This document shows positions 9,631-59,002 of a DNA stretch of 64,000 bases, in pieces. Made by a program: the position numbers and the translations under genes. Under the pieces are notes generated by a model. The model saw only the letters and a list, made by a program, of their open reading frames with translations. It was not told where the DNA came from and ran no database searches. Source of the DNA: a virus (Duplodnaviria; Heunggongvirae; Uroviricota; Caudoviricetes); IMG/VR virus record IMGVR_UViG_2778261375_000003; one strand, given 5' to 3'. Within the stretch, counting starts at the first letter, position 1; every line of letters begins with the position of its first letter.

Positions 9631-10032
9631 CAAATGGATCAAAAAGCGTTACCAGAGGAAGAGGAAGAGGAAGATATAAATACTGATCTCCCCCTAAATC
9701 CCCCTCGCCAAAAACGAGCGTCTAAAAAATTTGAGCCGGAGGCTATTGAGCTGCCCGATTGGTTGCCGGAAACACTCTGGCATGAGTGGGTCCGGTTCAG
9801 GCAGGCATTGCGAAAACCGATTCGAACGGAGCAGGGCGCTAACGGGGCGATACGGGAGCTGGAAAAATTCCGCCAGCAGGGTTTTACACCTGAGCAGGTG
9901 ATTCGACACAGCATCGCCAATGAATACCAGGGCCTGTTCGCGCCGAAAGGTGTTCGGCCTGAGACGTTGCTCCGACAGGTTAACACTGTCTCGTTGCCGG
10001 ACAGTGCGATCCCGCCAGGCTTCAGGGGGTAA
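9244..10032 (+). CDS. ydaU: YdaU-like replication initiation protein (lambda O analogue)
   Basis: 262 aa directly upstream of a DnaC-like gene; carries internal palindromic repeats. Confidence 0.65.
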   Translation: MASNWIKLEVITPDKPEIFRLAEILNIDPDAALGKVIRFWAWADQQMIDGNADCNARGVTKSAIDRITFMAGFADALIQVGWLVENDGGLSLPNFERHNGKSSKKRAVTNERVTKIRELKRKGNAGSVTQMDQKALPEEEEEEDINTDLPLNPPRQKRASKKFEPEAIELPDWLPETLWHEWVRFRQALRKPIRTEQGANGAIRELEKFRQQGFTPEQVIRHSIANEYQGLFAPKGVRPETLLRQVNTVSLPDSAIPPGFRG

Positions 10033-10038
10033 CGGACC

Positions 10039-10785
10039 ATGAAAAATATTGCGACAGGCGGCGTTCTGGAACGCATCCGCCGACTGACCCCGCCACATGT
10101 AACCGCCCCATTCAGAACGGTAGCGGAGTGGCGCGAGTGGCAACTTGCTGAAGGCCAGAAACGTTGTGAGGAGATCAACCGTCAGAATCGTCAGTTGCGG
10201 GTGGAAAAAATTCTGAATCGTTCAGGCATCCAGCCGTTGCACCGTAAATGCTCATTTGCGAATTACCAGGTGCAGAACGACGGCCAGCGATACGCGTTAA
10301 GCCAGGCGAAATCCATCGCCGATGAACTGATGACCGGGTGTACAAATTTTGCGTTCAGCGGAAAACCTGGTACCGGGAAGAATCACTTAGCGGCAGCTAT
10401 CGGGAATCGCCTGCTGAAAGACGGTCAGACAGTGATTGTGGTTACCGTGGCTGATGTTATGAGCGCCCTGCACGCCAGCTATGACGACGGGCAGTCAGGC
10501 GAAAAATTTTTGCGGGAGCTGTGCGAAGTGGATCTGCTGGTTCTTGATGAAATTGGCATTCAGCGCGAGACGAAAAACGAGCAGGTGGTGCTGCACCAGA
10601 TTGTTGATCGCCGGACAGCGTCGATGCGCAGCGTGGGGATGCTGACAAACCTGAACTATGAGGCCATGAAAACATTGCTCGGCGAGCGGATTATGGATCG
10701 CATGACCATGAACGGCGGGCGATGGGTGAATTTTAACTGGGAGAGCTGGCGTCCGAATGTCGTCCAGCCAGGAATTGCGAAGTGA
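10039..10785 (+). CDS. ydaV: YdaV-like DnaC/IstB-type helicase loader ATPase
   Basis: 248 aa, Walker [16 protein letters not shown], Walker B LLVLDEIG. Confidence 0.85.
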
Positions 10786-35849: not shown

Positions 35850-36581
35850 ATGAGTTTAGCGCAGCCAAAATCAGGAGAACTGTTAGATCTTCTGACTCCT
35901 TCATTAACTAAGGGTGAAAACCTTCTGAGTGAGTTTGAAATCCATCGAATCATTCGTGAAGCGAAGAAACTACCTGAACGTTATCAGGGGCTATCAATTG
36001 AAGGCTTAGCTAAGCTTGTTCTTGGTGAAATAGATGAAGGATGTTCACTCTGTGAGCGGGGGTTGAGAATAGCGCCTAACGATCCAGTTTCTTTTTGTAA
36101 CTATACGATTGCGCTGCGTAACTTAGGTTTGCATGCTCGCCAGTATGTGATGATTCAGAAAGCATCTGATTCACTTAATCCAACGATATTGGCTGAGGTT
36201 GCTACAATTTCTGCATACTGGGTTGATATCGATTTGCTTGAAAAGGTGATGCCGATGCTAACTGCAATGGAAGTACCGCGCCCTGAAGATATGGGCAAAT
36301 GGTATGACACGCTCAATTATCTGCATACCCAAAAAGATCATGCTCAGGAGCTAAAAACTATTGGGCGGCTCATGATGAACGTTGCAGAAAAGTACCGCGC
36401 TCGTCTTGCTGGCGCTCATGCTTTTTATGTAATGTCAGAACTTGATACGCTGTTCGTTGAAGTCAAAACAGACGATCCAGTGCTTCTTTCGCAGATGAAT
36501 AATGCCTTGGCTGATGAGATTATTATTGCGGGGCTTGCGGATTCAGAATGCGTCGGATGCTTTGAAGCCGGGGAACTCTAA
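35850..36581 (+). CDS. Hypothetical helical protein, gene 1 of two-gene moron
   Basis: 243 aa; preceded by 150-bp AT-rich intergenic; stop overlaps next ATG (TAATG). Confidence 0.55.
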   Translation: MSLAQPKSGELLDLLTPSLTKGENLLSEFEIHRIIREAKKLPERYQGLSIEGLAKLVLGEIDEGCSLCERGLRIAPNDPVSFCNYTIALRNLGLHARQYVMIQKASDSLNPTILAEVATISAYWVDIDLLEKVMPMLTAMEVPRPEDMGKWYDTLNYLHTQKDHAQELKTIGRLMMNVAEKYRARLAGAHAFYVMSELDTLFVEVKTDDPVLLSQMNNALADEIIIAGLADSECVGCFEAGEL

Positions 36582-37009
36582 TGTCGGTTGAGCATACCTG
36601 TTTTCTTGAATTGGCTAAGCATTCCCTGGCTCTAAACGGTGAGATGTGGACGAGAAATGCTATTAGCCGAGCATACTATGGTATGTACCATTCCGCCTTA
36701 CGGATCACCAACAATCTGGTACCGACCGCTACACAAGATGGTGAAAAACTAAAAGGTGGAGTTCACATGCGAGTCTATACGGCCTTTTGTAGTGGTGAGG
36801 CAGCTGCACTTAACGATGTTGATGTTAACGCAGTAAAGAAAATCGGCGTTAAACTGAAAATGACGCATGCCCAACGTGTTAATTCTGATTACAAGCTTGA
36901 GCGGAAAATCAACCGGATTACCGCGAGAAGTGTAATTCTGGATGCGGAAGAGGTCGATGCAATCGTTAATCAATTACTGAAGATTGGTGATGACTCGTTA
37001 ACTGCATAA
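36581..37009 (+). CDS. HEPN-like protein, gene 2 of two-gene moron
   Basis: 142 aa; N-terminal helix pair FLELAKHSLALNGEMWTRNAISRAYYGMYHSALRI resembles the HEPN N-terminal pattern; assignment by pattern only. Confidence 0.45.
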   Translation: MSVEHTCFLELAKHSLALNGEMWTRNAISRAYYGMYHSALRITNNLVPTATQDGEKLKGGVHMRVYTAFCSGEAAALNDVDVNAVKKIGVKLKMTHAQRVNSDYKLERKINRITARSVILDAEEVDAIVNQLLKIGDDSLTA

Positions 37010-37030
37010 GCTGAAATTTCTCAAAATTCA

Positions 37031-37055
37031 AACCCGCCACTTGGCGGGTTTTTTG
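37031..37055 (+). terminator. Rho-independent terminator ending the moron cassette
   Basis: aacccgccacttggcgggtt hairpin plus tttttt. Confidence 0.75.
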
Positions 37056-37073
37056 CTTTCTGGAGCCTACTAA

Positions 37074-37826
37074 ATGGCAGTATCTGACCAGACCCGCAGC
37101 GGCGACCTTGCCGAAACATTTAAATCTGAACGGGAAACAACAAAGAACCAGATCCGTGTCGCCTTGCCTGGCATTGTTCAGTCATTCGCTCCTGATGCGG
37201 TGACGGCGGTTGTACAGCCTGCTATCCGTTACGTTGAAATTGATAACGACGGCAACCGCATTACCAAAAATTACCCATTGCTGGTGGATGTGCCAGTGGT
37301 ATTCCCGCGTGGCGGAGGCTGTACGCTAACGTTTCCAGTTAAAGCCGGTGATGAATGTTTGGTGATTTTTGCCGATCGTTGTATTGATTTCTGGTGGCAG
37401 AGTGGCGGGATACAGGAGCCGGTCGATGACAGAATGCATGATTTATCGGATGCGTTTTGTATTGTCGGTCCCCAGTCGCAGGCAAGGAAGATTAGCGGTA
37501 TTAATACCAGTGCCACACAGTTGCGTAGTGATGACGGCAGCACCTATTTTGAGCTTAATCCTGATACCAGGAAAATTAAAATTGTCGCTCCGGGGGGCCT
37601 TGATGTGGTTGCCCCTCTGGCTGATTTTTCTGAGAAAGTAACCATTCATGGCCTGTTAACCTGGATGGGAGGCATGGTGGGGTCTGTTGTTTCTGGTGTG
37701 GCTTCAAAAATCACTGGTGCTGTTGAGTTTTTGGGTAGCGTGAAGGCTAACGGCAAGCCAATCGATGATACGCACACTCATGGTGGTGTTCAGCGCGGTG
37801 GAAGCAATACCGACGGAGTAAAATGA
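37074..37826 (+). CDS. Baseplate central spike protein (gpV / Gp138-N-like)
   Basis: 250 aa, upstream of W- and J-like baseplate genes. Confidence 0.6.
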   Translation: MAVSDQTRSGDLAETFKSERETTKNQIRVALPGIVQSFAPDAVTAVVQPAIRYVEIDNDGNRITKNYPLLVDVPVVFPRGGGCTLTFPVKAGDECLVIFADRCIDFWWQSGGIQEPVDDRMHDLSDAFCIVGPQSQARKISGINTSATQLRSDDGSTYFELNPDTRKIKIVAPGGLDVVAPLADFSEKVTIHGLLTWMGGMVGSVVSGVASKITGAVEFLGSVKANGKPIDDTHTHGGVQRGGSNTDGVK

Positions 37827-38179
37827 TGCGATACAGACGTGAAGACGCCGATGGCGATTACACCTTTGGCAGCGGTGATGACACCTGGCTGATTAACTCA
37901 CCGGAGGCCGTGGCGCAGGCGGTAAAAACGCGATTCGAATTGTGGTATGGGCAATGGTTTCTCGACACCACCGAGGGGACTCCGTGGATCCAGTCCGTAC
38001 TCGGTAAGCAGAAGCCGGAAACCTACAACCTAGCGATCAGAAAACGCATTCTGGAAACGCAGGGCGTTAAATCAATCCTCTCTTTCAATACGACGGTGGA
38101 TACCACGACCCGACGTGTCATGTTTTCCGCTGAAATCGACACTCTCTATGGAATAACGACTGTTACATCGGAGGCGTAA
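37823..38179 (+). CDS. Baseplate protein (gpW-like)
   Basis: 118 aa, ATGA-coupled between spike and J-like gene. Confidence 0.55.
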   Translation: MMRYRREDADGDYTFGSGDDTWLINSPEAVAQAVKTRFELWYGQWFLDTTEGTPWIQSVLGKQKPETYNLAIRKRILETQGVKSILSFNTTVDTTTRRVMFSAEIDTLYGITTVTSEA

Positions 38180-39378
38180 TGGCTCTGAACCTTGATTCTC
38201 TCGGTTTATCTGCAAAGGTAACCGCGGAGGGGATCAGTGCGCCTGATTATCAGACGATACTCAGCACCCTGATTAGCTATTTTCAGCAGATTTATGGCAG
38301 TGATGCCTACCTCGAACCGGACAGCAAAGACGGCCAGATGGTGGCTCTGATGGCGCTGGCGATTCATGATGCCAATAATATGGCGATAACTGTCTACAAC
38401 TGTTTTTCACCGGCAACCGGCTATGGGGCTGCACTGACCAGTAACGTGAAAATAAATGGTATTTCACGTAAAGGCGCGACGAATTCTACGGTTGATTTGC
38501 TTCTTACAGGAACTGCCGGGGCAACCATCATTAATGGCAGCGTGAAAGACAGTAATAATGTGATATGGCGTTTGCCTGCTTCAGTGGTGGTCGGCGTGGA
38601 TGGTACAGTGATGGTGACCGCAACATGTTCCGTCAGTGGTGCAGTGGCGGCGCTGGCTGGAACTATCACTGAAATTAATACGCCAACCCGTGGCTGGATT
38701 TCGGTAACCAATCCTGCTGCAGCTACTGTAGGCACTCCAGCAGAAACTGATGCTGAGTTACGTATCCGCCAGTCGCAAAGTGTTGCGTTGCCATCAATAA
38801 CCCCATTTGAAGCACTGGATGGTGCTGTTTCTAATGTTGCCGGTGTAACCCGCCACAAACTCTATGAAAACGATACTGGTTCGGAGGACGGTAACGGGTT
38901 ACCGCCACACTCTGTTGCTGTAATTGTGGATGGTGGTGATGTGACGGATATTGCTCAGGCTATCAGAGGGAATAAAGGCCAGGGGACAGCCACTCACGGT
39001 ACAACATCCGTTACGGTTCTGGATAAATACGGCAATCCCCATGTAATCAAATTCTCGCGTTCCAGTGATGTACCTGTTTATGCCCGGATTAAATTAAAAG
39101 TTTTTACGGGTTATACCTCACAGATAGGGCAGCAGATCCAGCAGGCTATTTCCGACTATATCAATAGTCTGATGATTGGTGATTCGGTCCTTTTAAGTCG
39201 CATTTACTCACCGGCGAATCTTGGCGTGGTGAGTGGCGGGAATGCACGCTATTACGATATTCAGGAACTGACGATTGGGAAATCCCCGGGGGCTTTGTCG
39301 TCATCAAACATTGATATCAGATACAACGAATCTGCGTCCTGTACCCCGGAAAATATCGTTATAACGGTGGAGTCATGA
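38179..39378 (+). CDS. Baseplate J-like protein
   Basis: 399 aa in canonical position. Confidence 0.6.
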   Translation: MALNLDSLGLSAKVTAEGISAPDYQTILSTLISYFQQIYGSDAYLEPDSKDGQMVALMALAIHDANNMAITVYNCFSPATGYGAALTSNVKINGISRKGATNSTVDLLLTGTAGATIINGSVKDSNNVIWRLPASVVVGVDGTVMVTATCSVSGAVAALAGTITEINTPTRGWISVTNPAAATVGTPAETDAELRIRQSQSVALPSITPFEALDGAVSNVAGVTRHKLYENDTGSEDGNGLPPHSVAVIVDGGDVTDIAQAIRGNKGQGTATHGTTSVTVLDKYGNPHVIKFSRSSDVPVYARIKLKVFTGYTSQIGQQIQQAISDYINSLMIGDSVLLSRIYSPANLGVVSGGNARYYDIQELTIGKSPGALSSSNIDIRYNESASCTPENIVITVES

Positions 39379-40055
39379 GCAAATACACCGAACTAATCAC
39401 AAACTACCACGCCACCAAACCTAAATTTCTTGCACATGTTGATCTGATGACCCGGCCGCTTATTGATGTTGCGGCTGCCACCAGAGGGCTGATTACTGCA
39501 TTTGATATTGACTCTGCGGTTGGTGTGCAACTTGACATTCTGGGATTGTGGATCGGACGTAGCCGTGTTGTCAGCCAGCCTATCTCAGGTGTCTATTTCA
39601 GCTGGGATACCGACGGGCTTGGATATGATCAGGGGGTATGGCAGGGACCATACGATCCTGATTCCGGATACATGTACCTCAGCGATGAAACTTATCGTGT
39701 CATTCTTAAAGCGAAGATTGCGATTAATAACTGGGACGGACGGAATGATTCGCTTCCGGCAATTCTTGACGCTGCAACAGCAGGATCCGGGCTGCGAATG
39801 CAGATAGTCGATAACCAGGACATGACGATATCGGTCTGGGTCTTTCCTGATACTGATATTTCAGATGTATCGCGTGAGTTAATTGCGGCAATTAAACAGG
39901 GGTATCTCACAGTAAAAGTCGCCGGGGTATGGGCGGGTGGCATTGAAACACCTTCGGTGGAAACCCCATCGGAAGGCTCAAAATTTTTTGGTTTTGATAT
40001 GGATAACGAATTCATCAGTGGTTTTGATGTAGGAGCATGGGGAGTATTACTCTGA
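39375..40055 (+). CDS. Baseplate protein (gpI-like)
   Basis: 226 aa between J-like gene and tail fiber. Confidence 0.5.
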
Positions 40056-40828
40056 TGGCGAAAAATGACTTTAAAGCGTTTGCAACGGATCGAAATGCCA
40101 ATGTTATATCGCAGGAGGAATGGGAAGCGTTGCCCGCGCTTTTATCCGGATTTACAGCAGGGAAAGCCTCCAGTGCGCAAGTCAATAAGGTTATTCGGCA
40201 GGCCAGCTTTATTGCTGCAGCTCTGGCCCAGTTTGTAAGTGATAAAACGCAACGGGATGTGCTTGATAATGGTGATCTGCCCGGTTTTGTTGAATTGCTG
40301 GGATCGGGGTTTGCTGTTGAATACCTGAGCCGCAAGAATCCGTTTGGTGATATCAAATCGGATGGCACGGTGAAAACGGCTCTCGAAAACCTTGGTTTGG
40401 GAGAAGGTTCGGCATTACCCGTTGGTGTGCCTGTCCCGTGGCCTTCCGCCACTCCGCCAACAGGCTGGCTAAAATGCAATGGTGCGGCTTTTTCTGCTGA
40501 AGAATACCCGGAACTGGCAAAGGTTTATCCGACAAATAAATTGCCTGATTTACGCGGTGAATTTATTCGTGGATGGGATGATGGGCGTGGGGTGGATTCC
40601 TCTCGTGGTTTGTTGACATCTCAAGACCATTTATTTGCTTCTCATGGGCACTGGTTTGACAAGTACTATGCGCTAACAGGTTTTGATACAACGGGAGGTC
40701 GGTTCGTAGTTACGGCTGATGCTTTCGGGGAACTTATTAAGGCAAATTCAATTTCTACGGTATCGGTTGGTGGTTCTGAAACCCGGCCGCGCAACGTCGC
40801 ATTTAACTATATCGTGAGGGCAGCCTGA
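40055..40828 (+). CDS. Tail fiber protein (short, Stf-like C-terminus)
   Basis: C-terminus ...[10 protein letters not shown]...[12 protein letters not shown]...[11 protein letters not shown] parallels recalled lambda Stf C-terminus; ATGA overlap with previous gene. Confidence 0.7.
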
Positions 40829-41430
40829 TGAATAAAGCCGTATTAAATAACGAACTCATTGCCATAAAAGCGGGAGACATTACCATTTATAATTATGATG
40901 GTGAAACGCGGGAATATATTTCCACATCAACTGAATATCTTGCGGTTGGCGTCGGTATACCGGCATGCTCCTGTTTAGATGCTCCTGACTCATATAAAGC
41001 TGGTTATGCAATCTGCCGTTCTGCAGATTTTAACTCATGGGTATATGTGCCAGACCACCGTGGTGAAACGGTATATAGCACTGAAACAGGAGAATCAAAA
41101 GAAATCACAGCTCCGGGTGATTACCCTGAAAATACAACCACTATCGCCCCGTTAACGCCATTCGATAAATGGGATGGTGAGAAATGGGTGACCGATACTG
41201 AGGCACAGCATTGCGCCGCAGTAGACGCGGCAGAAGCACAGCGTCAGTCACTGATTGATACTGCAATGGCTTCCATCAGTCTGATTCAACTGAAATTGCA
41301 GGCCGGGCGGAAGCTGACGCAGGCAGAAACCACCCGACTTAACGCTGTGCTGGATTACATTGACGCGGTGACGGCAACAGATACCAGCACCGCGCCGGAT
41401 GTCATCTGGCCTGAACTGCCGGAGGCGTAG
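40828..41430 (+). CDS. Tail fiber assembly protein (Tfa)
   Basis: 200 aa after fiber gene; C-terminal ...LDYIDAVTATDTSTAPDVIWPELPEA. Confidence 0.75.
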   Translation: MNKAVLNNELIAIKAGDITIYNYDGETREYISTSTEYLAVGVGIPACSCLDAPDSYKAGYAICRSADFNSWVYVPDHRGETVYSTETGESKEITAPGDYPENTTTIAPLTPFDKWDGEKWVTDTEAQHCAAVDAAEAQRQSLIDTAMASISLIQLKLQAGRKLTQAETTRLNAVLDYIDAVTATDTSTAPDVIWPELPEA

Positions 41431-41842
41431 GCCATTCAATATCTGGCGCACCGGAAGTATCGACCAGTTCCAGTGCGTCCAGGTAATCCAGCCACAAATT
41501 ATATTGCGCCAGTTCGTCACCTTTCAGACGACCAATAGCCGCTTTACCAGGCCATTGTTTACTGTTCATATAATCGTTGGCCTGATTAATCAATTGCTGC
41601 TTCTCCAATTCGGCTGCAGCAATTTGTTCCTCATGTGTTGGTGGTGGAATTTCGGACCATGCAGGAAAACCATTTTCTCCAGCGATACGGATTTTTCCTT
41701 TCGGCGGTAATCCGGAAAACTCAATATACACTTGCTCATCAACTTCAACAGCATCATCTGGCCATGAGTCAGCTTGAGTGTAATCCTCTTTCATCCCCAG
41801 CGGATAGAAAGAGTTTGTAGTCGCGGAATATATGTAATTCAT
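41402..41842 (-). CDS. Tail fiber assembly protein (Tfa), second copy, convergent
   Basis: 146 aa; C-terminal ...LDYLDALELVDTSGAPDIEWPTPP; 3' end overlaps the plus-strand tfa by 29 bp. Confidence 0.75.
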   Translation of the reverse strand: MNYIYSATTNSFYPLGMKEDYTQADSWPDDAVEVDEQVYIEFSGLPPKGKIRIAGENGFPAWSEIPPPTHEEQIAAAELEKQQLINQANDYMNSKQWPGKAAIGRLKGDELAQYNLWLDYLDALELVDTSGAPDIEWPTPPAVQAR

Positions 41843-41863
41843 TTTTCACTCCATATAGCTAAA

Positions 41864-43798
41864 TTAACAGCCTAACGCTAAAAATGAAGCGCCGAGGCCA
41901 GGAGTACTGGCTCTGGATATAAATTTAACCGGGTCGGGACTAAAACCTGCACAGGCAATATAACCAACAGCCCCGCTATCTGGTGTGTAGTCTTGTGAGA
42001 CCAAAACACGCAGACATCTGTTTGGAAATGCAATCGGGAAATGGGTTACTACATCCTGTGCAATGCCTGGTGCGCCGATTGAGCCCCACTGAAGAATAAA
42101 ACCTGATGGTAATTTTTGATATCCAGTACCTGAAACAGAAAGCGTGAAGCTACCCATATCAGGTATCTGATTCGCCCCTGTCCCTACATTCCTTTTAGCC
42201 GCTTCTCCCAAACCAAGGTATTGGATAACGGCCAGTGTGCTTGTTTTAGCCAGAATATCGCGACCGACTGACGTTAAATCAGTCTGAGCTACCGTATCCT
42301 TACCAGTGAAATAAGGCAGTTTGTTTGCACCAGTCGCAAGGGCAGCGAGAGCGGTTAAAGTTGCATCCAGAGGCTGTTTGCCTGCCAGCGCATTTGTCAT
42401 TGTTGTCGCAAAGTTCGGGTCATTGCCAAGTGCTGCGGCAAGCTCATTCAGGGTATCAAGAGCTTCTGGTGATGAACCAACCAATGCGGATATGGCAGCT
42501 CTTACATAAGCGGTCGTAGCAATCTGCGTGTTATTCGTACCCTGTGCAGCGGTAGGCGCAGTAGGGACACCCGTTAATGCAGGGCTTGCCAAAGGCGCTT
42601 TGAGAGCCAAGGCATTGTTGATAGTTGTGCTGTAATTCGGGTCGTTATTGATCGCAGCAGCTATTTCTTTAAGCGTATCCAGTGTGCCAGGCGCACCGTT
42701 GATAAGTGCAGTTATAGCTGCCTTAACAAAGGCTGTATTTGCGATCTGCGTGTTATTCGTACCCTGTGCAGCGGTAGGCGCAGTAGGTATTCCCGTTAAT
42801 GCAGGACTTGCTAAAGGAGCTTTAAGAGCCAGAGCATTGTTGATAGTTGTGCTGAAATTCGGGTCGTTATTGATCGCAGCAGCTATTTCTTTAAGCGTAT
42901 CCAGTGTGCCAGGTGCACCGTTGATAAGTGCCGTTATAGCTGCCTTAACAAAGGCTGTATTTGCGATCTGCGTGCTATTTGTACCTTGCGCTGCCGTCGG
43001 CGCGGTTGGCGTTCCTGTCAGACTCGGGCTTTCTATTGGCGCTTTGGTATCAGCCAGATCTTTTATAGACTTAACAGCTTTAGGGGTAGCCGCCATTGTT
43101 TCGCTGTCGCTGTTAGTTGCGCTACTGAGCTGAACTAATCCCTTTTGCGTTGTGCTTGCATCCTGTGCCGTATACTTGCTTTTCGCCAGATCGTAGGCTT
43201 TTTTAACTGCCAGCGAACTTGCAGCAACATCACTTCTGGTACTGGTTACAGAGTCTGAAATATCAATGCCGATCGAGCGGTTGATACGCTCGGATGTATC
43301 AATCATCTCCTGGGTAATGGCAGATACACTAGCAGGGATATTCACCGTACAAACAAGCAGCTCCCCATCTCCTAACTGATATGAATCGGTATAGGTTCTG
43401 GCAACAAATTCAGCCGCATGAATATGTGACGCGGTATTCACCTGGTAGGTATCTTCTCCAAGGAGGTATCTTCCCTTCAGCACAATTGCATATTTCTTGC
43501 CTGCACTAAGTGCAAGAGAAATATCCTTACGTTGCTGAATAGTTACCTGGTAAAATTCACCAATATCCACCGACGCCGCGCCTGCGGTTTTATCACCATC
43601 CACTGAGGTAATTAACAGGTTCATCCCACCGCCAGGCTTAGGTAAGAAACCGGCATAAAATCCCGGGTCAACAATCCCCCTGAATTTTCGGTTTAGCGCG
43701 GCTGACAGATATGGTTCGTGGTATTGCACATCGGCCACCAGAGCCAACGACTCGGATGATGGGTAAGTAACCGATGTAACAACTGTAACGTCATTCAT
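41864..43798 (-). CDS. Side tail fiber protein (Stf-like) with internal tandem repeats
   Basis: Start set at MNDVTVVTS; contains ...[25 protein letters not shown]... and ...[35 protein letters not shown]... blocks shared with lambda Stf / P2 H as recalled. Confidence 0.8.
42540..43030. repeat. Tandem coding repeats (about 222-bp unit) within tail fiber gene
   Basis: Near-identical DNA at 42641-42660 and 42863-42882 and surrounding; encode repeated [57 protein letters not shown] units. Confidence 0.75.
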
Positions 43799-43809
43799 CA
43801 AGCATATCC

Positions 43810-44244
43810 TTATGCTGTAGTCGTGTTTATGGCCATAACTGCGGTATATGTTTTGCCCACATACAGCGAGTCTTCCTGGACACAAATAATGGCGATTGGC
43901 TTGTTCTCGTTATCCAGAACAACCAGAGTGTTGAATGGGTAGTTTTTCCCTTCCTGCAACTGGCTTTGATCAAGGTCCATTCGGACAGTAATTATCCCGC
44001 CTGAGTAGGTTGGGACGAGGTTGATGGTGCAAAATTGACTGGTCAGTTCTGCCAGTTCGAAAGCCTTTGGCAGTTCTCCAATCTCATAAGTGCCATCTCC
44101 TTTCTTAGTAACCAGCGAACTGGTACCGAAAACGGCCTTGCTGATTAAAAATCGAGAGCCTTTGTTAATGGACGATTCAGCGCGCCGCTGATAGTAATAG
44201 TCCAACAACTGACTCTTATAGAGGTTTGTTGAGACGTCAGACAT
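43810..44244 (-). CDS. Tail/baseplate-associated hypothetical protein
   Basis: 144 aa immediately upstream of minus-strand tail fiber. Confidence 0.45.
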
Positions 44245-44322
44245 GATTTTCCCTAATCAATGTTGTGAAGCCTCATTGTAAGATAAGTAACTTGTCACCC
44301 CGCCCTGCGGACGGGGTGATTA

Positions 44323-45162
44323 TCAGGCATCACTATCCAGCAGCAAATCATCTGCGCGGGTGCGATCAAACGTAGGCGTTGCTTTCACAATAGTGCCGCC
44401 CGGCGTTGCAGTGATCGGAGCGCTAATCGACGTAACTCCAGTAAGCGAAGTTGTATCCGAAGTTTCAAACCAGCAGTACGCTTTTTCGGTATCAGAAATC
44501 TCGTTCAAAGTGATCATGTCGGCGTGTTCATTTACAACAACCGACAAATAGAGCGTAAGCCCATCAAACACTATATGCAGTGGCAGTAGAGGCTTTACGA
44601 ACTGATTAAACTTTCTGAGAATTTCTTCTGTAATTGCGGACTGATCTATCGTGCCAGTAATCCCCATTGTCCGGGCCAGGTCGTTTATGGGAATACTGAT
44701 CATCCCTCTGGAAGTCAGAAACATCTCGCCGAATGTGCCGCCGGTAGTCTCCAGTGTGCTTTCAGGTATTAGAACCGTGCCATAGGGATGACGCTCAAGG
44801 TCCACCGGTGCATATATCGGATCCCATAAAACAGAAATACCGTTAAATTCGCGGTAAATTGTCTGGTTTATAGGGCGTTCAGTCCCCTTAAAGTGAATCT
44901 CATCAAGACGCTGTTGTAACAACATCGGAACGGAAGATGAGTTCGACGTTCTGATAGTAAAGAACTGGCCAAGTTCATTTGTCCTGGTCTCCAGATCCTC
45001 CTTGCTCATGGAAAAAATAGACTTCCGGTTGGTAATTCGCTCCAACCATGGGTCAACAAAGGTATCCATCATTGACTGAACCAAATCAGCCAATGATTTA
45101 TAGAGCAATGACTTTTGCTTAGCTGATGTAAGCCGGTTATTAAACCAGGAACGCTGCATCAC
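44323..45162 (-). CDS. Baseplate protein (gpI-like position)
   Basis: 279 aa between J-like gene and fiber region on minus strand. Confidence 0.45.
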   Translation of the reverse strand: MMQRSWFNNRLTSAKQKSLLYKSLADLVQSMMDTFVDPWLERITNRKSIFSMSKEDLETRTNELGQFFTIRTSNSSSVPMLLQQRLDEIHFKGTERPINQTIYREFNGISVLWDPIYAPVDLERHPYGTVLIPESTLETTGGTFGEMFLTSRGMISIPINDLARTMGITGTIDQSAITEEILRKFNQFVKPLLPLHIVFDGLTLYLSVVVNEHADMITLNEISDTEKAYCWFETSDTTSLTGVTSISAPITATPGGTIVKATPTFDRTRADDLLLDSDA

Positions 45163-46592
45163 TCCTCCTCATACGAAATATTAAAGGTGGAGTTTTCTGT
45201 ATCCAGATAAACGAAATCGTAAAAGCCGTTGGACTCATTCCACTCGACAAATTCCAGATAAAAGTCGCGGAAATAACCCAGCGTTTCGATAAATGCCCAA
45301 ACGTCTTTTTTCTTGATTAGGATGTACTTGCCAACACGGTTCGGATCAAAGAAAGTTGAGTCACGCCCAAATTTTGTTTCCAGTGCCGACTTCAGCTCAT
45401 CAGTCACGTTCTCAATGGTCAGGCTTGCCGATATCCGCCCGGTGATGGTGATCTTAAAGGGTAGTTTTCTGACCTCTTTATACGAGAATTTCTTGTTCAA
45501 CTCATTCGGCACCTTCTTAAAGGCAGCCAGGATCATTTCTTCAAGCTCTGACTGGCTTTTGTTTGGATGCCATCCTGAAATAAATATCTTATTGATATTC
45601 CGAACATTATAAGCACCATCTAATTTCTCTTGCTGGCCTTCGCCCCATGCCTTTACCCAGGACAGTCCCGGGATGTTACGCACCAGAAAATACGTATAGT
45701 CCCCGCCCCATACGACCTGATCATCATAGGCAAGGTAATATTGTGCACGATTACGTGTGATCTCCGTTGTTTCGGCATCGGTACCTGCGGTTATGGGTGT
45801 CATTGTCTTAACTGAAATCAAATTAGCTAAATTAGCCGCAGAATCGACAGGCGTCAGATTTTGGCCAGCAACCAAGGTTATATCTCCGTTGGTGCACCAT
45901 ACCTTAAGTGTAATGGTCGAGCCTTCTGGCGGTATTTGCCCAATTAGCCCATCACCGAATCGAACCCCCAACTGCTCGGATGGTTTATAAAACTCAACGT
46001 AGACCTGGCTTTTACTACCAGCTAACCGGAACATAGTGCTGGAAGACCACTGCGTGGTCTTACCATCGGTCGTCACGAATACTTCCAGCTTATAGCAGAC
46101 AGCAGTGAGAGCCTTTGATAACACGACTTCCAGAAATTCTTTGGCTGCCGTAACGGTATATGTCACCTCCTGGATTTCCAACTGTGCCACTTCTACCGTA
46201 CCGGTGCCGTCAACCAACCTGCATACATCCATAGTTATGTAAGGGTACTGGTCGTCAGATATTAAAGGCATGTTTTTGGGGATTACCGCTGGAGCATCTT
46301 CACTTGTGGCGGTGATCTCAATCATCCCCGATGACGGTGTTGGCTTGGTACCAACGTAACTATTCGTTTCTGCCGCTGCCAGGATAGAGGAACGCCGCGT
46401 CGCGGTCGATATAAAGCCTTCAGCCAGCGCCGCATCGGCATACTGAAAGCACCTGTAGACAATCTGGGTAATAAACAATGTCAGCATCGAGACAAATTGA
46501 GAGCCGACAAACTTCGACCAGAATGAATCTTTCTCGACAAGCTCTTCAAACTCTGCACGAATACTGTCTTTAGTCGGTGTTGTTTTACTCAT
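45159..46592 (-). CDS. Baseplate J-like protein
   Basis: 477 aa in canonical position of minus-strand tail module. Confidence 0.55.
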   Translation of the reverse strand: MSKTTPTKDSIRAEFEELVEKDSFWSKFVGSQFVSMLTLFITQIVYRCFQYADAALAEGFISTATRRSSILAAAETNSYVGTKPTPSSGMIEITATSEDAPAVIPKNMPLISDDQYPYITMDVCRLVDGTGTVEVAQLEIQEVTYTVTAAKEFLEVVLSKALTAVCYKLEVFVTTDGKTTQWSSSTMFRLAGSKSQVYVEFYKPSEQLGVRFGDGLIGQIPPEGSTITLKVWCTNGDITLVAGQNLTPVDSAANLANLISVKTMTPITAGTDAETTEITRNRAQYYLAYDDQVVWGGDYTYFLVRNIPGLSWVKAWGEGQQEKLDGAYNVRNINKIFISGWHPNKSQSELEEMILAAFKKVPNELNKKFSYKEVRKLPFKITITGRISASLTIENVTDELKSALETKFGRDSTFFDPNRVGKYILIKKKDVWAFIETLGYFRDFYLEFVEWNESNGFYDFVYLDTENSTFNISYEEE

Positions 46593-46948
46593 AGCACCAC
46601 GTCCTGTGTGATAGTTATATCCCTGATACGAATGGATATTTTCAACTTATCAAAAGCATCTCCCTCGGCTACTGACAAGCCAGAAATCGGTATGTCAGGT
46701 AAATCTACCGTCAGTTTTTGCAACAGCATTGCCTCAACCGCAATTTGAACATGCGACAAGTTGGTCGGTTCGTGTTTAAACTGCGGTAAAACATTGCCCC
46801 ATGACGGATCCCCGTATACCTCACCCTGATAAGTGTTTAGCCACTCATATAAACGAGCGCCCCAGGCCTCCTCCTGGGACTCATACGTTTTTACGCCGGA
46901 TAACTCCAGCGTCAGCAAAGGATCAATTTCGTTATTGTTGGCCATCAA
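46589..46948 (-). CDS. Baseplate wedge protein (gpW/gp25-like)
   Basis: 119 aa, coupled between tape-measure-like gene and J-like gene. Confidence 0.5.
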   Translation of the reverse strand: MMANNNEIDPLLTLELSGVKTYESQEEAWGARLYEWLNTYQGEVYGDPSWGNVLPQFKHEPTNLSHVQIAVEAMLLQKLTVDLPDIPISGLSVAEGDAFDKLKISIRIRDITITQDVVL

Positions 46949-49900
46949 TCAACTCTCGCGTAGTCATTCATCAACGGATCATCAATTGACAGTGGTACCG
47001 TGCGCATAACGCCCGGCTGAGGCGTGCTGACCTTTACGACAGTTCCCTGGCCTTTCGCCGAGTCTTTGGTGTGCTCTTCAATCCTGGCAAGCAATGAGGC
47101 CATCTGCGCAAACAGCCGCTTCGTTTCACCATCAAGTGAAACGGTATTATCAGCCAACTGCATTGTCGGCTTGGCACCGGAGCCGCCAAGGTCACTAATA
47201 ACCTGTCCGTCTATCTGCATACGACCGGTTGGTTGCTGCAAATCGTTGGCGGCAGTCGTCACCTTGGACGTGGAGGCTGGTTCAGGCGCATTATTTTTCC
47301 GCATCCCCGGCGAGTTGCGGAGTTTATCGAATAGTCCATCAATCTCCATTTGTGCGCCGAGTTGGTCAAAGTAACTTGAGTTGTTGGCCACCGGACGCGC
47401 CTCTTCAACTGGCATCGGAGTATCAACATACACATTGCCAGCTGCTGTTGCGGTCCCCTTCCCTCGTGCACGTTCTTCGAGCGTTCCCTGAACGACTTCC
47501 CGACGCATACCCCGGCCATTCATGAATTTGTTGACCAGATCGTTAACGCCAACAGCATTGCCGATTTTGTCTACCAGACCGCCTTTCTCAAACGGGCTAT
47601 CACCAGGGGTAAATGCCAGGCCAGTAGACTGATCGATAACAGCGTTATCAGGCAGTGGTCCCCTCACTCCATATTGCGCCCCACCCTGTGCTCCTGCTCC
47701 AGGTGTATAGATTTCACCACCTAAATAGCGAGCACGATGAGTATTGACCTTGATCGCGTACTCACGGTTTTCTTTGGATAAGTCACCTGTGCCTTTTTTC
47801 CACTTATTGATAGTGCCAAACCCAGCGTTATATGCAGTGATGGCCTCGTTTAAGTCTCCATTGGCTTGCTTCAGATACTTGCTCATGAGAAGAGCCGCAG
47901 CTTCTGCCGATTTCACAGGATCAAACGATTCACCTTCAGCTAAGCCAGTCTCTTCACGAGCAATCCCCGTGAACTGAAACATTCCCAGAGCACCGGTTTG
48001 GGATTTTGCATACGGATTACCACCAGATTCAGTTGCAGCAATCGCGTAAAGAGTGCCTTCTGGAAGACCGTATTTATTCTCTAGTTCGGCAAAATACGGA
48101 GCCAACTTATCGAGATTTGCCTTACCTTCAGCGCCAAGACTTCCGACTTTTACATCTAAGTTGCCATTGTTGTAAGTATCCGCAGCTTTCTGAATGTCAT
48201 TCCTGGTGCCAGTAGTATTAAGCGACGATGATGATGAGCTATTTTGACCAATAGCATTATCAATTTTCTGCAACGCGCTATTGCCCGTTTCTACGGCATT
48301 TGCATTGATAATCTGATTGGCAGTTTCTTTAACTGTTTTATTGCTATCTTTCGCCGTATCTAGGGATGCATTTACAACACGAGTGACAATATTAGCCTTT
48401 TTAGGGGTATATTCAGTCTTAGGAGCATTGTCCTCCTGACTTTCTTTAGCTGGTGTTTTTAATTCAGGTGTAACCTCTTTCGCATCCGCTTTGTTGACTA
48501 GCTTTGATGCAACCCAGGCCACAGGGGTGCTCTGAACAGCGGCATCTGCAACCTCACCTGAAAGCTCTTTTGCGGCACTCCATAGATTACTGCCAGCTTC
48601 TTTAATGTATTTCCCTGGGTTCTTAATGAAATCAATTGCACTATCAATTGCATCACTGAAAACCTGTTTCAGGTTATCGACAGTAAAGAAGTTTTTGATG
48701 GCGTCTAATTTTTCGTTCAGGTTCTTTGTTGTGTCACTGAACCATGCTGAAATAGCATCACCAATCTTTGCAGTATAATCACTAAATGTCGTGGATATAG
48801 TATCACCAAGGTTAGAAATATATGTTTCTAAATTGGTAATCCCACTATCAATGGCCTGGGCAATACTTTCCGTCGAAAATGATTGCAACATATTGCCGAT
48901 ATCCTCAAATCCAAGTGATTTGAGAACGCCGCCAATGGCACTGCTAATACCAGATACCAGTCCTCCCATATCGAGAACGTTAGCCAGTGTATAAGCCGCT
49001 TTTTGCTGAAAAGATGGATCTTCCCCATCCTTAAGCCCAAAGGTCCGACGTTGTGCTTCTGTATCATTCCAACCGGTTACCGCATCATAGATACCTCCAG
49101 CCACCGTGCCGACTAGCGGAATTGCGCGTAAAGCCCCCTTTGCAAGAGCCTTAACACCTAGTTTCCCCAATCCCTTAGTTGCAAGTTTTCCGGCACCGCG
49201 AGTAGCCAATTCGCCAGCTTCTTTGGCAGCAGCTTTTTTCCCACCAAAGCCCAATAAGCTTGCAACTTTTTTTATACCTAAAGCGCCTAGTGCCATCGAG
49301 CCAACTTTCTTTAGTACCCCACGGCCAAAAATAAGGGAAGCAATACCACCGGCCCCCTTCCCTAACAGGCTAAATAGTTTGGACAGCAAGCCGCCCTTCT
49401 TTTTCCCGGTGTTTTTGGCTATCTGATCAAGGGCGCTGAGAATCTTGTCATTGCCCTCTTTAATTTCGCTGGTCTGCTCCTGAAGTTCCTGAACCGTCCG
49501 TTTTTGGGTGTTAACCTGAACGACATCGGCACTATTTTGCGATTTACGCCTAAAAAAACCTTTTCTACGGCTGTTATCGTCATTGCCACGAATCACATCG
49601 GCAATAGACTTTCTGGCACCATTAAGCGATCCACCAACTTCTTTTGATATCCCGCCAAGCTCCTTCCCTGCTGCCCACAATGGACCAGCAACGGCATAAC
49701 CTAACGCATCGACGGCACGAGTCTCTGAAGGGTTACCTATGCCTTCAGCTACTTTTGACAGTTTTTTTAATAAACCTGATTCAGCATTTAGACGCTCATC
49801 ATCCTCTTTGCGCCTGGCCTTTTCAGCACGTTCAGCACGGGCATCTTCCGCTGCGGCCTTACTCCCTGACTTTCCAATAAAACGACCACGCGCATCGCGT

Positions 49901-55863: not shown

Positions 55864-55989
55864 GAGCAGATCGACCAACCCGATCTGGATCGAGTTAGAA
55901 AAATTTGCTCTAATAAATTTCGTTTTCTAAGTGCAAAGAATCACCATTTCGAGCTGGTGATTGAAGGTTGATGCAAATTTGGAGAAAAA

Positions 55990-56790
55990 ATGCAACAAAC
56001 ATTCAATGCGGATATGAATATATCAAACCTTCATCAAAATGTCGATCCTTCAACCACTCTGCCTGTTATTTGTGGTGTTGAAATTACGACCGACCGCGCT
56101 GGCCGTTACAACCTTAATGCTCTACACAGAGCGAGCGGACTCGGTGCCCATAAAGCGCCAGCTCAATGGCTAAGAACGCTGTCAGCCAAACAGCTCATCG
56201 AAGAGCTTGAAAAAGAAACTATGCAGAATTGCATAGTTTCGTTCGAAGGCCGTGGCGGCGGCACTTTTGCCCATGAATTGCTCGCTGTGGAGTACGCAGG
56301 CTGGATTTCTCCCGCATTTCGGCTGAAGGTAAACCAGACATTTATCGACTATCGAGCCGGAAGATTACAACCAGCTATTCCGCAGAGTCTCCCTGAAGCT
56401 CTCCGTTTGGCTGCCGACCTGGCAGAGCAAAAGCAACGGCTGGAGCAAAAAATGCTTATGGATGCACCTAAAGTCGAATTCGCCGAACGCGTTGCTACCG
56501 CTAGCGGGGTTCTAATCGGCAACTATGCCAAAGTGCTCGGCCTGGGCCAAAACTATCTCTTCACCTGGTTGCGTGATAACGGAATTCTGATCGCAACCGG
56601 TGAACGCAGGAACGTCCCCAAACAAGAATACATATCTCGTGGGTATTTCACCCTTAAAGAAACCGTGATCGATACAAGCAATGGAAGCAGGATTTCTTTC
56701 ACGACTCGTATAACCGGCAAAGGTCAGCAGTGGCTGATGAAGCGATTGCTTGATGCTGGTGTGCTGGTACCTGTCGCGGCAACGCGCTAA
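55990..56790 (+). CDS. Phage antirepressor, KilA-N plus KilA-C domains
   Basis: N-terminal KilA-N-like region (...NLNALHRASG...AQWLR...FEGRGGGTFAHELLAVEYAGWISP...); C-terminal ANT domain paralogous to previous gene; ggagaaaaa RBS. Confidence 0.75.
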   Translation: MQQTFNADMNISNLHQNVDPSTTLPVICGVEITTDRAGRYNLNALHRASGLGAHKAPAQWLRTLSAKQLIEELEKETMQNCIVSFEGRGGGTFAHELLAVEYAGWISPAFRLKVNQTFIDYRAGRLQPAIPQSLPEALRLAADLAEQKQRLEQKMLMDAPKVEFAERVATASGVLIGNYAKVLGLGQNYLFTWLRDNGILIATGERRNVPKQEYISRGYFTLKETVIDTSNGSRISFTTRITGKGQQWLMKRLLDAGVLVPVAATR

Positions 56791-56819: not shown

Positions 56820-57665
56820 ATGCTGGCTAAAGTCACTTTCCTGAGCTGTATAACGATGAGCGATTTTACTTTTTCTGGCTATGAATTGGCCTGCTTTGTA
56901 ACACACTCCGGTCTATCCCGTAGCGCCGGGCATATCCTGTCGCAATGTGCAAATCTCGCGGCAACAACCAGTGAATACTTCATTCACAAGCCTCACCGCC
57001 TGATCGCGGCAGAAACTGGTTATAGCCAATCAACCGTCGTTCGTGCATTCCGTGAAGCTGTAAACAAAGGAATTCTGTCTGTAGAGATTGTTATCGGCGA
57101 TCACCGTGAACGTCGCGCTAACCTGTACCGGTTTACACCATCCTTTTTGGCCTTCGCACAACAAGCCAAAAATGCGCTGATAGAAAGCAAATTAAAGATC
57201 TCTTCAGCGGCAACCAAGGTTAAAGCTGTTCTCGCTAAGACATTGGCTTTATTTAATTTTTTATCCACACCCCCATGTCAAAATGATACCCCCTCCCCCT
57301 GTCAGGATGACGTGGCAATAAAGAATAAGAAGTCACAAGTTAAAAAAACAAAAAGATCAGTTTCCGGCGGTGCCGGAACGACCAGCCTCAAAAAATTGAC
57401 TTCATGGATCGCTAAGGCAAAAGCAAAGGCTGACAATCTGCGGTTATCCAAAAAACGCACTCAAAAACATGAGTTCAAGCAGAAAGTAGAGGCGGCTGCG
57501 CGGAAATATGCTTACCTGAAGAACAAGCGTTCGCCTGATATTGGCGGGATATCAAACTTCGATAACCTACCGCATTGCATGACGGTAAACGAAGCTCTTA
57601 ATGCGGTTTTAGCCAAAAATAAAGATAACGAACAATGGGGTATACCGGCAGGATTCAGAGGGTAA
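56820..57665 (+). CDS. Winged-HTH DNA-binding protein (possible replication/regulatory)
   Basis: HTH-like GYSQSTVVRAFREAVNKGIL; basic low-complexity middle; C-terminus ...WGIPAGFRG echoes YdaU C-terminus; start may be 56856. Confidence 0.45.
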   Translation: MLAKVTFLSCITMSDFTFSGYELACFVTHSGLSRSAGHILSQCANLAATTSEYFIHKPHRLIAAETGYSQSTVVRAFREAVNKGILSVEIVIGDHRERRANLYRFTPSFLAFAQQAKNALIESKLKISSAATKVKAVLAKTLALFNFLSTPPCQNDTPSPCQDDVAIKNKKSQVKKTKRSVSGGAGTTSLKKLTSWIAKAKAKADNLRLSKKRTQKHEFKQKVEAAARKYAYLKNKRSPDIGGISNFDNLPHCMTVNEALNAVLAKNKDNEQWGIPAGFRG

Positions 57666-57833
57666 TGAATTGCTCTAATTATAACCATGCATACTTTCAA
57701 CACCTCTAGTTTGCCATGAGGCAAACTCATAGGTGTCCTGGTAAGAGGACACTGTTGCCAAAACTGGACGCCCCATTATTGCAATTAATAAACAACTAAC
57801 GGACAATTCTACCTAACAATAAGTGGAGTTAAC

Positions 57834-58538
57834 ATGTTGAACCGAAGAACATTTAATGTATTCTGCGATGAATCCTGTCACCTACTAAATGATCATAATA
57901 AAGTCATGGTATTGGGTGCGCTTTGGTGTCCCGGCACTATCACAAAAAAAATTGCTAGAGACATCAAGGAATTAAAATTAAAACACAATCTAAAACCTGA
58001 TTTCGAAATCAAGTGGACTAAAGTATCTGCGTCCAAAGTTGAATTTTACTTAGATGTCGTAGATTACTTCTTCAGCAACCCTGCATTGCGCTTTAGAGGT
58101 GTTGTTGTTCCTGATAAAGAGCAACTGGACCATGCTCGATTCCATCAAGATCATAATACTTTCTATTATAAGATGTTTTTTTATGTCTTAAAAAACATAA
58201 TAGAAAGTAACAACACATACAATATCTACCTAGATATAAAAGATACTTTAGGTATTGAAAAAATTGAGAAATTAAGAGGGGTTCTTCACAATGATCGCTA
58301 TGATTACAATCATGAGTCGATAAACAGAATTCAACATATACGATCTCATGAAGTGCAGCAATTGCAGCTAACGGATCTTTTCATTGGCGCGTTAGGCTAC
58401 GTTCATCGAGGAATGAATAGCAACGCGGGAAAAATCCAAGTCATAAACAGAATAAAATCACATACAAACAGGGAGTTACTAAAAAGTACTCTTCCAACAG
58501 AAAGTAAATTTAATATTTTCGTGTGGGAGGCTCGCTGA
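57834..58538 (+). CDS. DUF3800-family protein, gene 1 of AT-rich two-gene cassette
   Basis: N-terminal FCDES motif typical of DUF3800; gtggag RBS; AT-rich codon usage; stop overlaps next start (ATGA). Confidence 0.6.
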   Translation: MLNRRTFNVFCDESCHLLNDHNKVMVLGALWCPGTITKKIARDIKELKLKHNLKPDFEIKWTKVSASKVEFYLDVVDYFFSNPALRFRGVVVPDKEQLDHARFHQDHNTFYYKMFFYVLKNIIESNNTYNIYLDIKDTLGIEKIEKLRGVLHNDRYDYNHESINRIQHIRSHEVQQLQLTDLFIGALGYVHRGMNSNAGKIQVINRIKSHTNRELLKSTLPTESKFNIFVWEAR

Positions 58539-59002
58539 TGCTTCAAATGCCAGATTTATTGTACTTCAATGGAAGTTGGCAAGAGTATATAGACGATGTA
58601 TATGATGTTGTTAGAGAAGATATTTTAATATCTAATATAACGTTTAAGGGTCTCCCTGTTCGATTACGTTATTCACCGGAATATAATGGGAAAGAATTCG
58701 GATTTTGGCATTTAGTATCAGAGGGAAAAATAGAAGAAGAACGTATACCCGATCTTGAACGGTGCAAGCGAATTCGCTGGATCGCGCACATGATAAGGAA
58801 TTATAACCATTGCGATATATCATGTTGGTCTGAAAGACGAGGACCAACTGAAGAGTGGGTAATCTGGAATGAGTGTGAAAACTACGTTGTTGTGCTATCC
58901 GCACGTAGAGACTATTGGCTTCTCAAAACAGCCTATGTTGTAACCTATGACAGTAAAATCAGAACACTCAAACAAAGCAGAAAAAGAGCACTTGGGACAT
59001 AA
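58538..59002 (+). CDS. Hypothetical protein with H/C cluster, gene 2 of cassette
   Basis: 154 aa from MLQMPDLLYF; gggagg RBS inside upstream gene; HMIRNYNHCDISCW cluster; no family recognised. Confidence 0.5.
   Translation: MLQMPDLLYFNGSWQEYIDDVYDVVREDILISNITFKGLPVRLRYSPEYNGKEFGFWHLVSEGKIEEERIPDLERCKRIRWIAHMIRNYNHCDISCWSERRGPTEEWVIWNECENYVVVLSARRDYWLLKTAYVVTYDSKIRTLKQSRKRALGT

Follow-up and report, generated by a model that had tools for sequence, protein, structure and literature searches.

We analysed a 64,000-nucleotide stretch of viral DNA (Caudoviricetes; IMG/VR virus record IMGVR_UViG_2778261375_000003), hereafter called the window, and in particular its open reading frame (ORF) at 56820-57665, whose product ends in a short peptide, IPxGFRG, found also on a second protein of the window. 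This ORF is repL, the lytic replication initiator gene of a P1-like element. In a tblastn search against phages its product was 100% identical over 281 aa to P1 RepL (NC_005856, 50726-51568), and it matched PHROG 2418 over residues 1-281 (E-value 8.8e-157). Pfam profiles (E<=0.01) and NCBIfam profiles gave no match on RepL; the Pfam copy used for the window proteins did not contain PF26868 (Phage_P1_RepL), a family that precomputed annotation places on RepL homologues. The features bearing on the two peptides are:

56820-57665, plus strand: repL, 281 aa, second gene of the C1-controlled kilA-repL operon.
57642-57662, plus strand: tail codons I-P-A-G-F-R-G, RepL residues 275-281 (stop codon at 57663-57665).
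9244-10032, plus strand: 262-aa replication initiator at the ydaU position of a Rac-like prophage (2.5e-89 to PHROG 2509, 'replication initiation protein').
10009-10029, plus strand: tail codons I-P-P-G-F-R-G of the ydaU-position initiator; these last seven residues are those of Escherichia coli DnaT.
10039-10785, plus strand: ydaV, a DnaC-type helicase loader (Pfam IstB_IS21, 5e-20; NCBIfam PRK12377, 8e-154; DnaC model, 4e-91).

A six-frame scan of the window located IPxGFRG followed by a stop codon at exactly two sites, 10009 and 57642, and so bore out the preliminary description of this DNA, in which a C-terminal motif had been seen on two otherwise unrelated proteins. RepL ends in …NEQWGIPAGFRG (WGIPAGFRG) and the product of ORF 9244-10032 in …NTVSLPDSAIPPGFRG (SAIPPGFRG). 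Outside the tail no similarity between them was detectable; they belong to separate PHROG families and neither has a Pfam match. Since a random C-terminus would read IPxGFRG with a probability of about 3e-8, the presence of two such termini among the ~130 window ORFs of at least 90 aa is not due to chance.

The ydaU-position initiator is flanked by ydaS, ydaT and ydaV (order ydaS-ydaT-X-ydaV), and ydaV starts 6 nt past its stop codon. The name YdaU given to it earlier was therefore right as to position, but membership of the K-12 YdaU family was rejected because the protein has no Pfam DUF1376 match and another type of N-terminus; its RefSeq names are mostly 'hypothetical protein', with 'YdaU family' in one genome. 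Residues 170-262 aligned with DnaT residues 92-179 in a phmmer search against the PDB (2ru8, 9zbt and 6aep; E-values 1e-4 to 5e-2, with 9.9e-5 for 2ru8_A and 3.2e-4 for 9zbt_D), and the last 19 residues aligned to the end of the NCBIfam DnaT model. The Pfam DnaT model stayed above E 0.01 for the protein itself and reached E<=0.01 in close relatives. Judged by these alignments, residues 170-262 are homologous to the C-terminal domain and tail of DnaT. RepL was likewise considered as a DnaT homologue and rejected, the heptapeptide being all that the two have in common: RepL had no PDB sequence match at E<=10 and no PF17948 match (Pfam E<=0.01), and its AlphaFold2 model contains one long helix and a short one instead of the three-helix bundle of DnaT.

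The C-terminus of E. coli DnaT, …NTVSEPDSQIPPGFRG, ends in IPPGFRG where RepL has IPAGFRG (tail peptide sequences: NTVSEPDSQIPPGFRG, from DnaT, and KNKDNEQWGIPAGFRG), and in E. coli 2 nt separate the end of dnaT from dnaC downstream. All 108 DnaT homologues gathered without reference to the motif ended in xPxGFRG or a near variant; variation was confined to position 3 (P, R or H), a few carried an AK extension and one read GLRG. Among DnaT orthologues the 20 residues ahead of the tail are variable, and the DnaT proteins of insect symbionts have diverged there yet kept the tail. By nuclear magnetic resonance the DnaT tail is a highly flexible segment of ~20 residues (PMC5778457). Removal of residues 154-179 roughly doubled the apparent dissociation constant for dT30 and lowered the Hill coefficient, that is, cooperative binding of single-stranded DNA (ssDNA) became modestly weaker (PMC4132743). 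In the 2026 cryo-electron microscopy (cryo-EM) study of the preprimosome (PMC13377028) the models were built from DnaT residues 84-153, the linker and the N-domain, the tail being unmodelled, and the recruitment of DnaB/DnaC by PriA-PriB-DnaT is said to remain 'unknown'. The literature searched assigns the DnaT tail no function, and the PDB held no entry with the tail bound to a partner. The tail of DnaT (residues ~160-179) and that of RepL thus have the same core heptapeptide at a flexible C-terminus, and the job of DnaT, bringing DnaB/DnaC to DNA, may be likened to that of RepL; the N-terminal domain and the three-helix ssDNA-binding domain of DnaT are both absent from RepL.

Conservation of the motif among homologues, which the preliminary description had proposed as a check, was found for both initiators as well as for DnaT. 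Relatives of RepL (identity to RepL in brackets) ended as follows:

Phage D6 RepL (27%): DWSIPAGFRG.
P0006 (53%): YTVPKGFRG.
P0017 (36%): ELPDGFRG.
P0018 (36%): FVPHGFRGA.
P0022 (36%): AIPEGWRGC.
P0023 (31%): WSIPPGFRGNKG (IPPGFRGNKG).
P0027 (32%): TTPKGFRTC.

The tail is strongly, not universally, kept, and it is recognizable in relatives only 27-36% identical to RepL. Natural extensions of one to three residues occur (GFRGA, GFRGAK, GFRGNKG). For the ydaU-position initiator, 82 of the top 120 homologues kept the tail and five more had near variants.

The occurrence of the motif in viruses was surveyed by three scans of IMG/VR for ATH-CCN-NNN-GGN-TTY-Arg-GGN-stop, with the Arg and stop codons split over the scans and with TAG stops and the combination AGR plus TGA left out. 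They gave 104, at least 120 and at least 120 matches; of those listed, 92, 106 and 96, respectively, stood at the end of an ORF of at least 140 aa. These long ORFs, ended by 294 of the 344 matches listed, formed 45 clusters at 70% identity, to which the following statements refer. In an alignment of the 45 clusters I, P, G, F, R and G were the sole invariant columns, the mean column identity being 15%. Their top PHROG or Pfam families were all replication initiators of at least six Pfam-distinct architectures; the tail-bearing families comprised O-like, DnaD-like, 'primosomal', Phg_2220_C, HTH_36, DnaD_N, DUF1376 (on four of the 45 clusters), DnaT and Phage_rep_O proteins. A longer consensus, N-x-[IV]-S-x-P-D-x-x-IPxGFRG, was common to many tail-bearing initiators; RepL shares the seven-residue core only, not this prefix of DnaT and the initiators. 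The 149 distinct tail-coding sequences used every synonymous codon at each position (six for Arg, four for Gly, four for Pro, three for Ile), so the constraint lies on the protein and not on the DNA.

A further scan covered 185,579 genomes, one per species, with x other than Pro, CGN codons for Arg and a TAA stop. It returned 114 matches, 93 of them in ORFs shorter than 90 aa and regarded as noise. The replication-related long ORFs were DnaT orthologues of Enterobacterales, including those of reduced insect symbionts, and two prophage initiators. Outside Enterobacterales the sole genuine proteins were a sugar-nucleotidyltransferase-like enzyme and a histidine kinase; the non-enterobacterial matches were rejected as real carriers, since two unrelated enzymes and GC-rich shadow ORFs amount to chance hits. 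The tail is located in a disordered region, stands out as conserved within variable surroundings and recurs on non-homologous proteins; on this comparative evidence it is a short linear motif that is selected at the protein level and is specific to proteins that get a DnaB-type helicase loaded. In the literature searched, coverage of which was incomplete so that an earlier description is possible, we found no account of the heptapeptide as a portable motif, of RepL carrying it or of its loader-specific distribution. Already known are the P1 lytic replicon locus and the homology of the DnaT C-domain with phage O-like proteins, which is reflected in the Pfam DnaT domain and in the DnaT_C domain that Brezellec noted in an O-like protein in 2017.

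The genes next to the tail-bearing initiators were then compared. Downstream sequence of at least 1.5 kb was available for 235 viral loci with a tail-bearing initiator; in these the next gene was a DnaC-type loader in 36 and a DnaB-like helicase in none; the others were followed by Ren-like or MarR-like small proteins, methylases or nucleases. It had been pointed out that repL has no adjacent loader gene, which is correct; as an oddity the observation did not stand, because about 85% of the sampled carriers have none and RepL is in this respect typical. Phage replication modules of the 'initiator-solo' category, as reviews call it, consist of an initiator without a loader or helicase gene, and RepL and most tail-bearing initiators are likewise without such a gene beside them. 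In addition to what the preliminary description contained, then, stand the identity of RepL, the identity of the motif with the tail of host DnaT and the finding that carriers without a loader are the rule.

In the reverse test we started from a loader or helicase gene and read the C-terminus of the upstream initiator, counting those that end in [IV]PxGFRG:

YdaV-like (DnaC-type) loaders: 78 of 78 (initiators of 260-378 aa).
Divergent DnaC-type loaders: 75 of 76 (10 initiator clusters; one other ending).
Lambda P: 0 of 77 (all 77 end in TDWIYGV[DE]L; loci L546-L625).
P22 gp12-type helicase: 0 of 75 (ends EGKFADRGI[AVS] or VLIAIREGTL; loci L711-L790).

The divergent loaders were 60-66% identical to their query, itself ~52% identical to both YdaV and DnaC. 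For the two DnaC-type sets together the tail was present on 153 of 154 upstream initiators, and within the loader sets the initiators varied in length and cluster while the tail was fixed. Lambda O (L465:87-986) and a tail-bearing O-like protein were 45% identical, and their homology stopped exactly where the tails begin, which looks like a swap of tails at a domain boundary. The earlier proposal that the motif may serve to recruit a partner such as a helicase loader draws support from the conservation of the tail and from this co-variation with loader type (153/154 as against 0/77 and 0/75). The endings suggest a general 'tail code', in which each class of loader or helicase would have its own initiator tail. 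Lambda O and lambda P share the logic by which the C-terminal part of an origin-bound initiator specifies the loader: lambda O, ending in …TDWIYGVDL, pairs with lambda P, whereas initiators with IPxGFRG stand beside a DnaC-type loader or have no phage loader at all. The 45% identity of lambda O to tail-bearing O-like proteins holds for their C-domains. Co-variation would also imply that the extreme tail of lambda O contacts P. In Yersinia and Serratia relatives of the ydaU-position initiator the DnaT-like domain is kept and an extension of ~65 residues (…WRGYLxQAYxETGEQPYxG[DG]) takes the place of the tail; the ydaS-ydaT-initiator context is conserved there, and the next gene encodes not a loader but a 132-aa DUF3268 protein (L706:4452-4850, L708:4437-4835), which may be an unrecognised loader or adaptor.

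The architecture of RepL was examined on an AlphaFold2 model built from a 19-sequence alignment, with a mean predicted local distance difference test (pLDDT) score of 72. From the N-terminus it consists of a winged helix, a disordered stretch (149-184), a long helix (190-236), a short helix (256-271) and a disordered end (272-281); this end, past the last predicted helix, has a pLDDT of ~48 and carries IPAGFRG. The winged helix, confidently modelled and matched by Foldseek to MarR-like proteins, RPC62 and DnaD-N, agrees with the earlier assignment of the protein as a winged helix-turn-helix type, and it is the best conserved block of the RepL family alignment. The corresponding features of the gene are:

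56853-57254, plus strand: winged-helix domain, residues ~12-145 (pLDDT ~85-94), presumed origin-binding module.
57270-57311, no strand assigned: C-rich imperfect repeats CCCCCATGTCAAAATGA / CCCCCTGTCAGGATGA inside repL, read directly from the sequence; candidate RepL binding sites of oriL.
57316-57358, no strand assigned: AT2, the A/T-rich element of oriL in repL (43 nt, 77% A+T), placed by means of the 13-mer of PMC9948254.

The repeats, which an automated repeat search did not report because they differ by an indel, and AT2 together encode the disordered residues 149-184. The peptide encoded by the repeats, PPCQND..PSPCQDD, is predicted to be disordered, although the RepL family conserves it; its conservation may reflect a DNA-level constraint at oriL, the repeats being candidate RepL binding sites just 5' of AT2. 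A sequence resembling the 13-mer, GATCTTTTTGTTT, lies within AT2 on the minus strand at 57346-57358. According to Huan et al. 2023 (PMC9948254), a C/G-rich stretch precedes AT2, AT2 is required for RepL-driven replication, and plasmids bearing repL with AT2 replicate in E. coli with RepL alone and no other P1 genes; the same authors call the mechanism of RepL unknown. Because RepL alone drives the replication of these plasmids, it must engage host factors. P1 encodes Ban, a DnaB homologue, and has no loader gene.

Upstream of repL lie the other elements of its operon:

55886-55920, plus strand: promoter PkilA (P53) with C1 operator Op53, the control region of the kilA-repL operon; position derived from the P1 annotation by offset, sequence read as TTTGCTCTAATAAATTT.
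55990-56790, plus strand: kilA, upstream gene of the kilA-repL operon, with Pfam KilA-N and ANT domains, named from the P1 annotation.

The DNA of the repL region is collinear with P1 (11 mismatches in 2100 nt), and the locus is the P1 RepL/oriL lytic replicon with no difference from it (kilA-repL, Op53 and AT2 inside repL). A 1983 study by Hay and Cohen on host genes for P1 lytic replication is said, in a citing paper, to have found a need for dnaE. Downstream of repL there is a second C1 operator, Op55 (57669-57685), followed by rlfA and rlfB (57834-59002); rlfA encodes a DUF3800 protein of 234 aa and rlfB one of 159 aa with no Pfam match, and their annotation says only 'possibly associated with lytic replication'. 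P1 is normally maintained as a plasmid. E. coli PK-F-10122 (NZ_CM148631.1, 4407923-4452000) has a P1-like element whose repL region is identical and whose annotated place is chromosomal, next to yqjC and beside a site-specific integrase. The window itself joins a chromosomal Rac-like prophage (1 to ~41 kb), with early genes and a myovirus tail module, to P1-like sequence (~41.8-64 kb). The joint lies near 41400-41900 (region ~36000-47000), inside tail-fibre genes, and in 5,426 complete E. coli genomes there was no place that covered at least 80% of the stretch across it; the joint could stem from recombination via shared tail-fibre genes or be an assembly chimera.

We think it probable, though by no means certain, that the IPxGFRG tail docks a DnaC-type loader with its bound helicase. 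RepL would then be modular: its N-terminal winged helix would recognise oriL (the C-rich repeats plus the unwinding element AT2) inside its own gene, the long helix 190-236 would probably oligomerise the protein, and the disordered IPAGFRG would recruit to the opened origin a DnaC-type loader carrying DnaB, or Ban of P1. With no loader gene in P1, it is the DnaC-DnaB complex of the host that RepL would dock, without an intermediary. The same tail would do the same job on host DnaT at restart forks and on many unrelated enterobacterial phage initiators, and it is a candidate for the element by which solo initiators could capture host DnaB-DnaC. From the distribution of the tail we infer physical binding, with DnaC rather than DnaB as the likely partner. 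As to where on DnaC this might occur, the substitution A84Y (dnaC1331) specifically blocks PriA/PriB/DnaT-dependent loading (PMC11087952), and the face Q81-x-x-A84-L85-S86-x-A88 was invariant in DnaC, YdaV and a third DnaC-type loader (L079), ~50% identical, while the flanks vary; this face is a possible docking surface, to be taken as a lead and not as evidence of contact.

Several points weigh against this reading. The authors of the preprimosome structures favour the N-terminal domain of DnaT as the recruiter of DnaB/DnaC (PMC13377028), which could act together with the tail. The tail is gone in an Enterobacter plasmid group and in the most distant RepL relatives; an Enterobacter RepL homologue (48% identity; L464:3001-3852) ends in …ARVRRFRSRE, which reads like a decayed IPxGFRG tail, and it is encoded on a 116-kb plasmid beside a Rep3-type initiator, not in a kilA-repL-rlfA context. 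A C-terminal His6 tag did no harm to RepL-driven amplification in a preliminary observation (PMC9948254), so that a free C-terminus is not needed, and the natural extensions of one to three residues agree with this. The motif scans were conditioned on the motif and show its occurrence, not the frequency of its loss. The loader counts refer to contigs, not to independent events, and each set is dominated by loaders near its query; the association could be inflated if the tail travels within a recombination module, and co-variation does not clearly tell DnaC apart from a state of DnaB that is specific to DnaC.

An alternative, unlikely in our judgement, is that the tail binds the replicative helicase, DnaB or Ban of P1, and that DnaC merely opens the ring. 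DnaA contacts DnaB directly (PMC13377028), most carriers have no loader gene and would need host DnaB anyway, and P1 has its own DnaB homologue. However, lambda P also delivers host DnaB, and a tail made for the helicase should suit its partners too, yet initiators upstream of lambda P never carried it (0/77), which disfavours direct contact with DnaB. It was also absent beside the phage DnaB-like helicases (0/75), and no DnaB-like gene came next in the 235 tail-bearing loci.

It is improbable that the tail targets another host factor (PriA, PriB, the pocket for the SSB tail, DnaG, RNA polymerase or a protease adaptor) or serves as a degradation or regulatory signal. Initiators are often under proteolytic control, which would favour such a signal, but a generic degron would not track the type of loader. 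DnaT does work with PriA and PriB; the preprimosome structures, however, explain its contacts with PriA (through the C-domain) and PriB (through the linker) without the tail. SSB-tail pockets require the free carboxylate of a terminal Phe. There is a superficial likeness of the tail to the SSB C-terminus …DDDIPF, in the order of acidic residues, I-P and F (PMC4129139), but in the tail R-G comes after Phe and additional residues are tolerated, unlike in ligands of those pockets; mimicry of the SSB C-terminus was therefore rejected, Phe not being terminal and both extensions and the His6 tag being tolerated. The SSB tail and clamp-binding motifs are similar in kind, in that a disordered segment terminates in a short conserved peptide which serves as a portable docking element in replication, whereas IPxGFRG differs from the SSB tail in its sequence, in not requiring the carboxylate and in being found on initiators and DnaT instead of SSB.

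That the tail helps its own protein to self-associate or to bind ssDNA cooperatively would agree with the weaker dT30 binding and lower Hill coefficient of DnaT without residues 154-179 (PMC4132743), but we consider it quite improbable: the domains that precede the tail are unrelated (the RepL helices, Phg_2220_C, a lambda-O-type C-domain and the DnaT bundle) and are unlikely to offer a common surface, the DnaT C-domain filament seen by cryo-EM was built from residues 84-153 alone, and the strict co-variation with loader type would be left unexplained. Finally, a tail without a function of its own, riding with a recombination module or kept by a constraint on the DNA, for instance translational coupling with the loader gene, fits the mosaic replication genes of lambdoid phages and the close abutment of tail codons and loader start at loci that have a loader (a gap of 6 nt in the window and of 2 nt in dnaT-dnaC), but is very improbable given that ~85% of the sampled carriers, RepL included, have no loader downstream, that amino acids are fixed while every synonymous codon is used, and that the tail persists in diverged insect-symbiont DnaT and in RepL relatives of ~30% identity.

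Docking of a DnaC-type loader by the tail, which we prefer to these alternatives, can be extended to a wider proposal that we hold only tentatively. There, IPxGFRG would be the element by which PriA-PriB-DnaT captures DnaB-DnaC and a general DnaC-docking peptide that enterobacterial phages could add to any origin-binding module (P1 RepL and O-like, DnaD-like and YdaU-type initiators), its site would lie on the conserved surface near A84 of DnaC, dnaT-dnaC would be a domesticated phage pair of initiator tail and loader, and under a modular tail code the DnaC-type, lambda P and gp12-type classes, possibly also DUF3268, would each have a cognate initiator tail.

For RepL, a widely used copy-number amplifier, the tail is new as a candidate mechanism of initiation, and for DnaT it is a candidate for the step at which the preprimosome recruits DnaB/DnaC; both can be tested with a target of seven residues. 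If the tail is a DnaC-docking peptide, it would explain how many 'solo' phage initiators capture the host helicase, and the descent of dnaT-dnaC from a phage initiator-loader pair would be suggested. It would also provide a portable tag for directing helicase loading and a lead peptide against replication restart in Enterobacterales.

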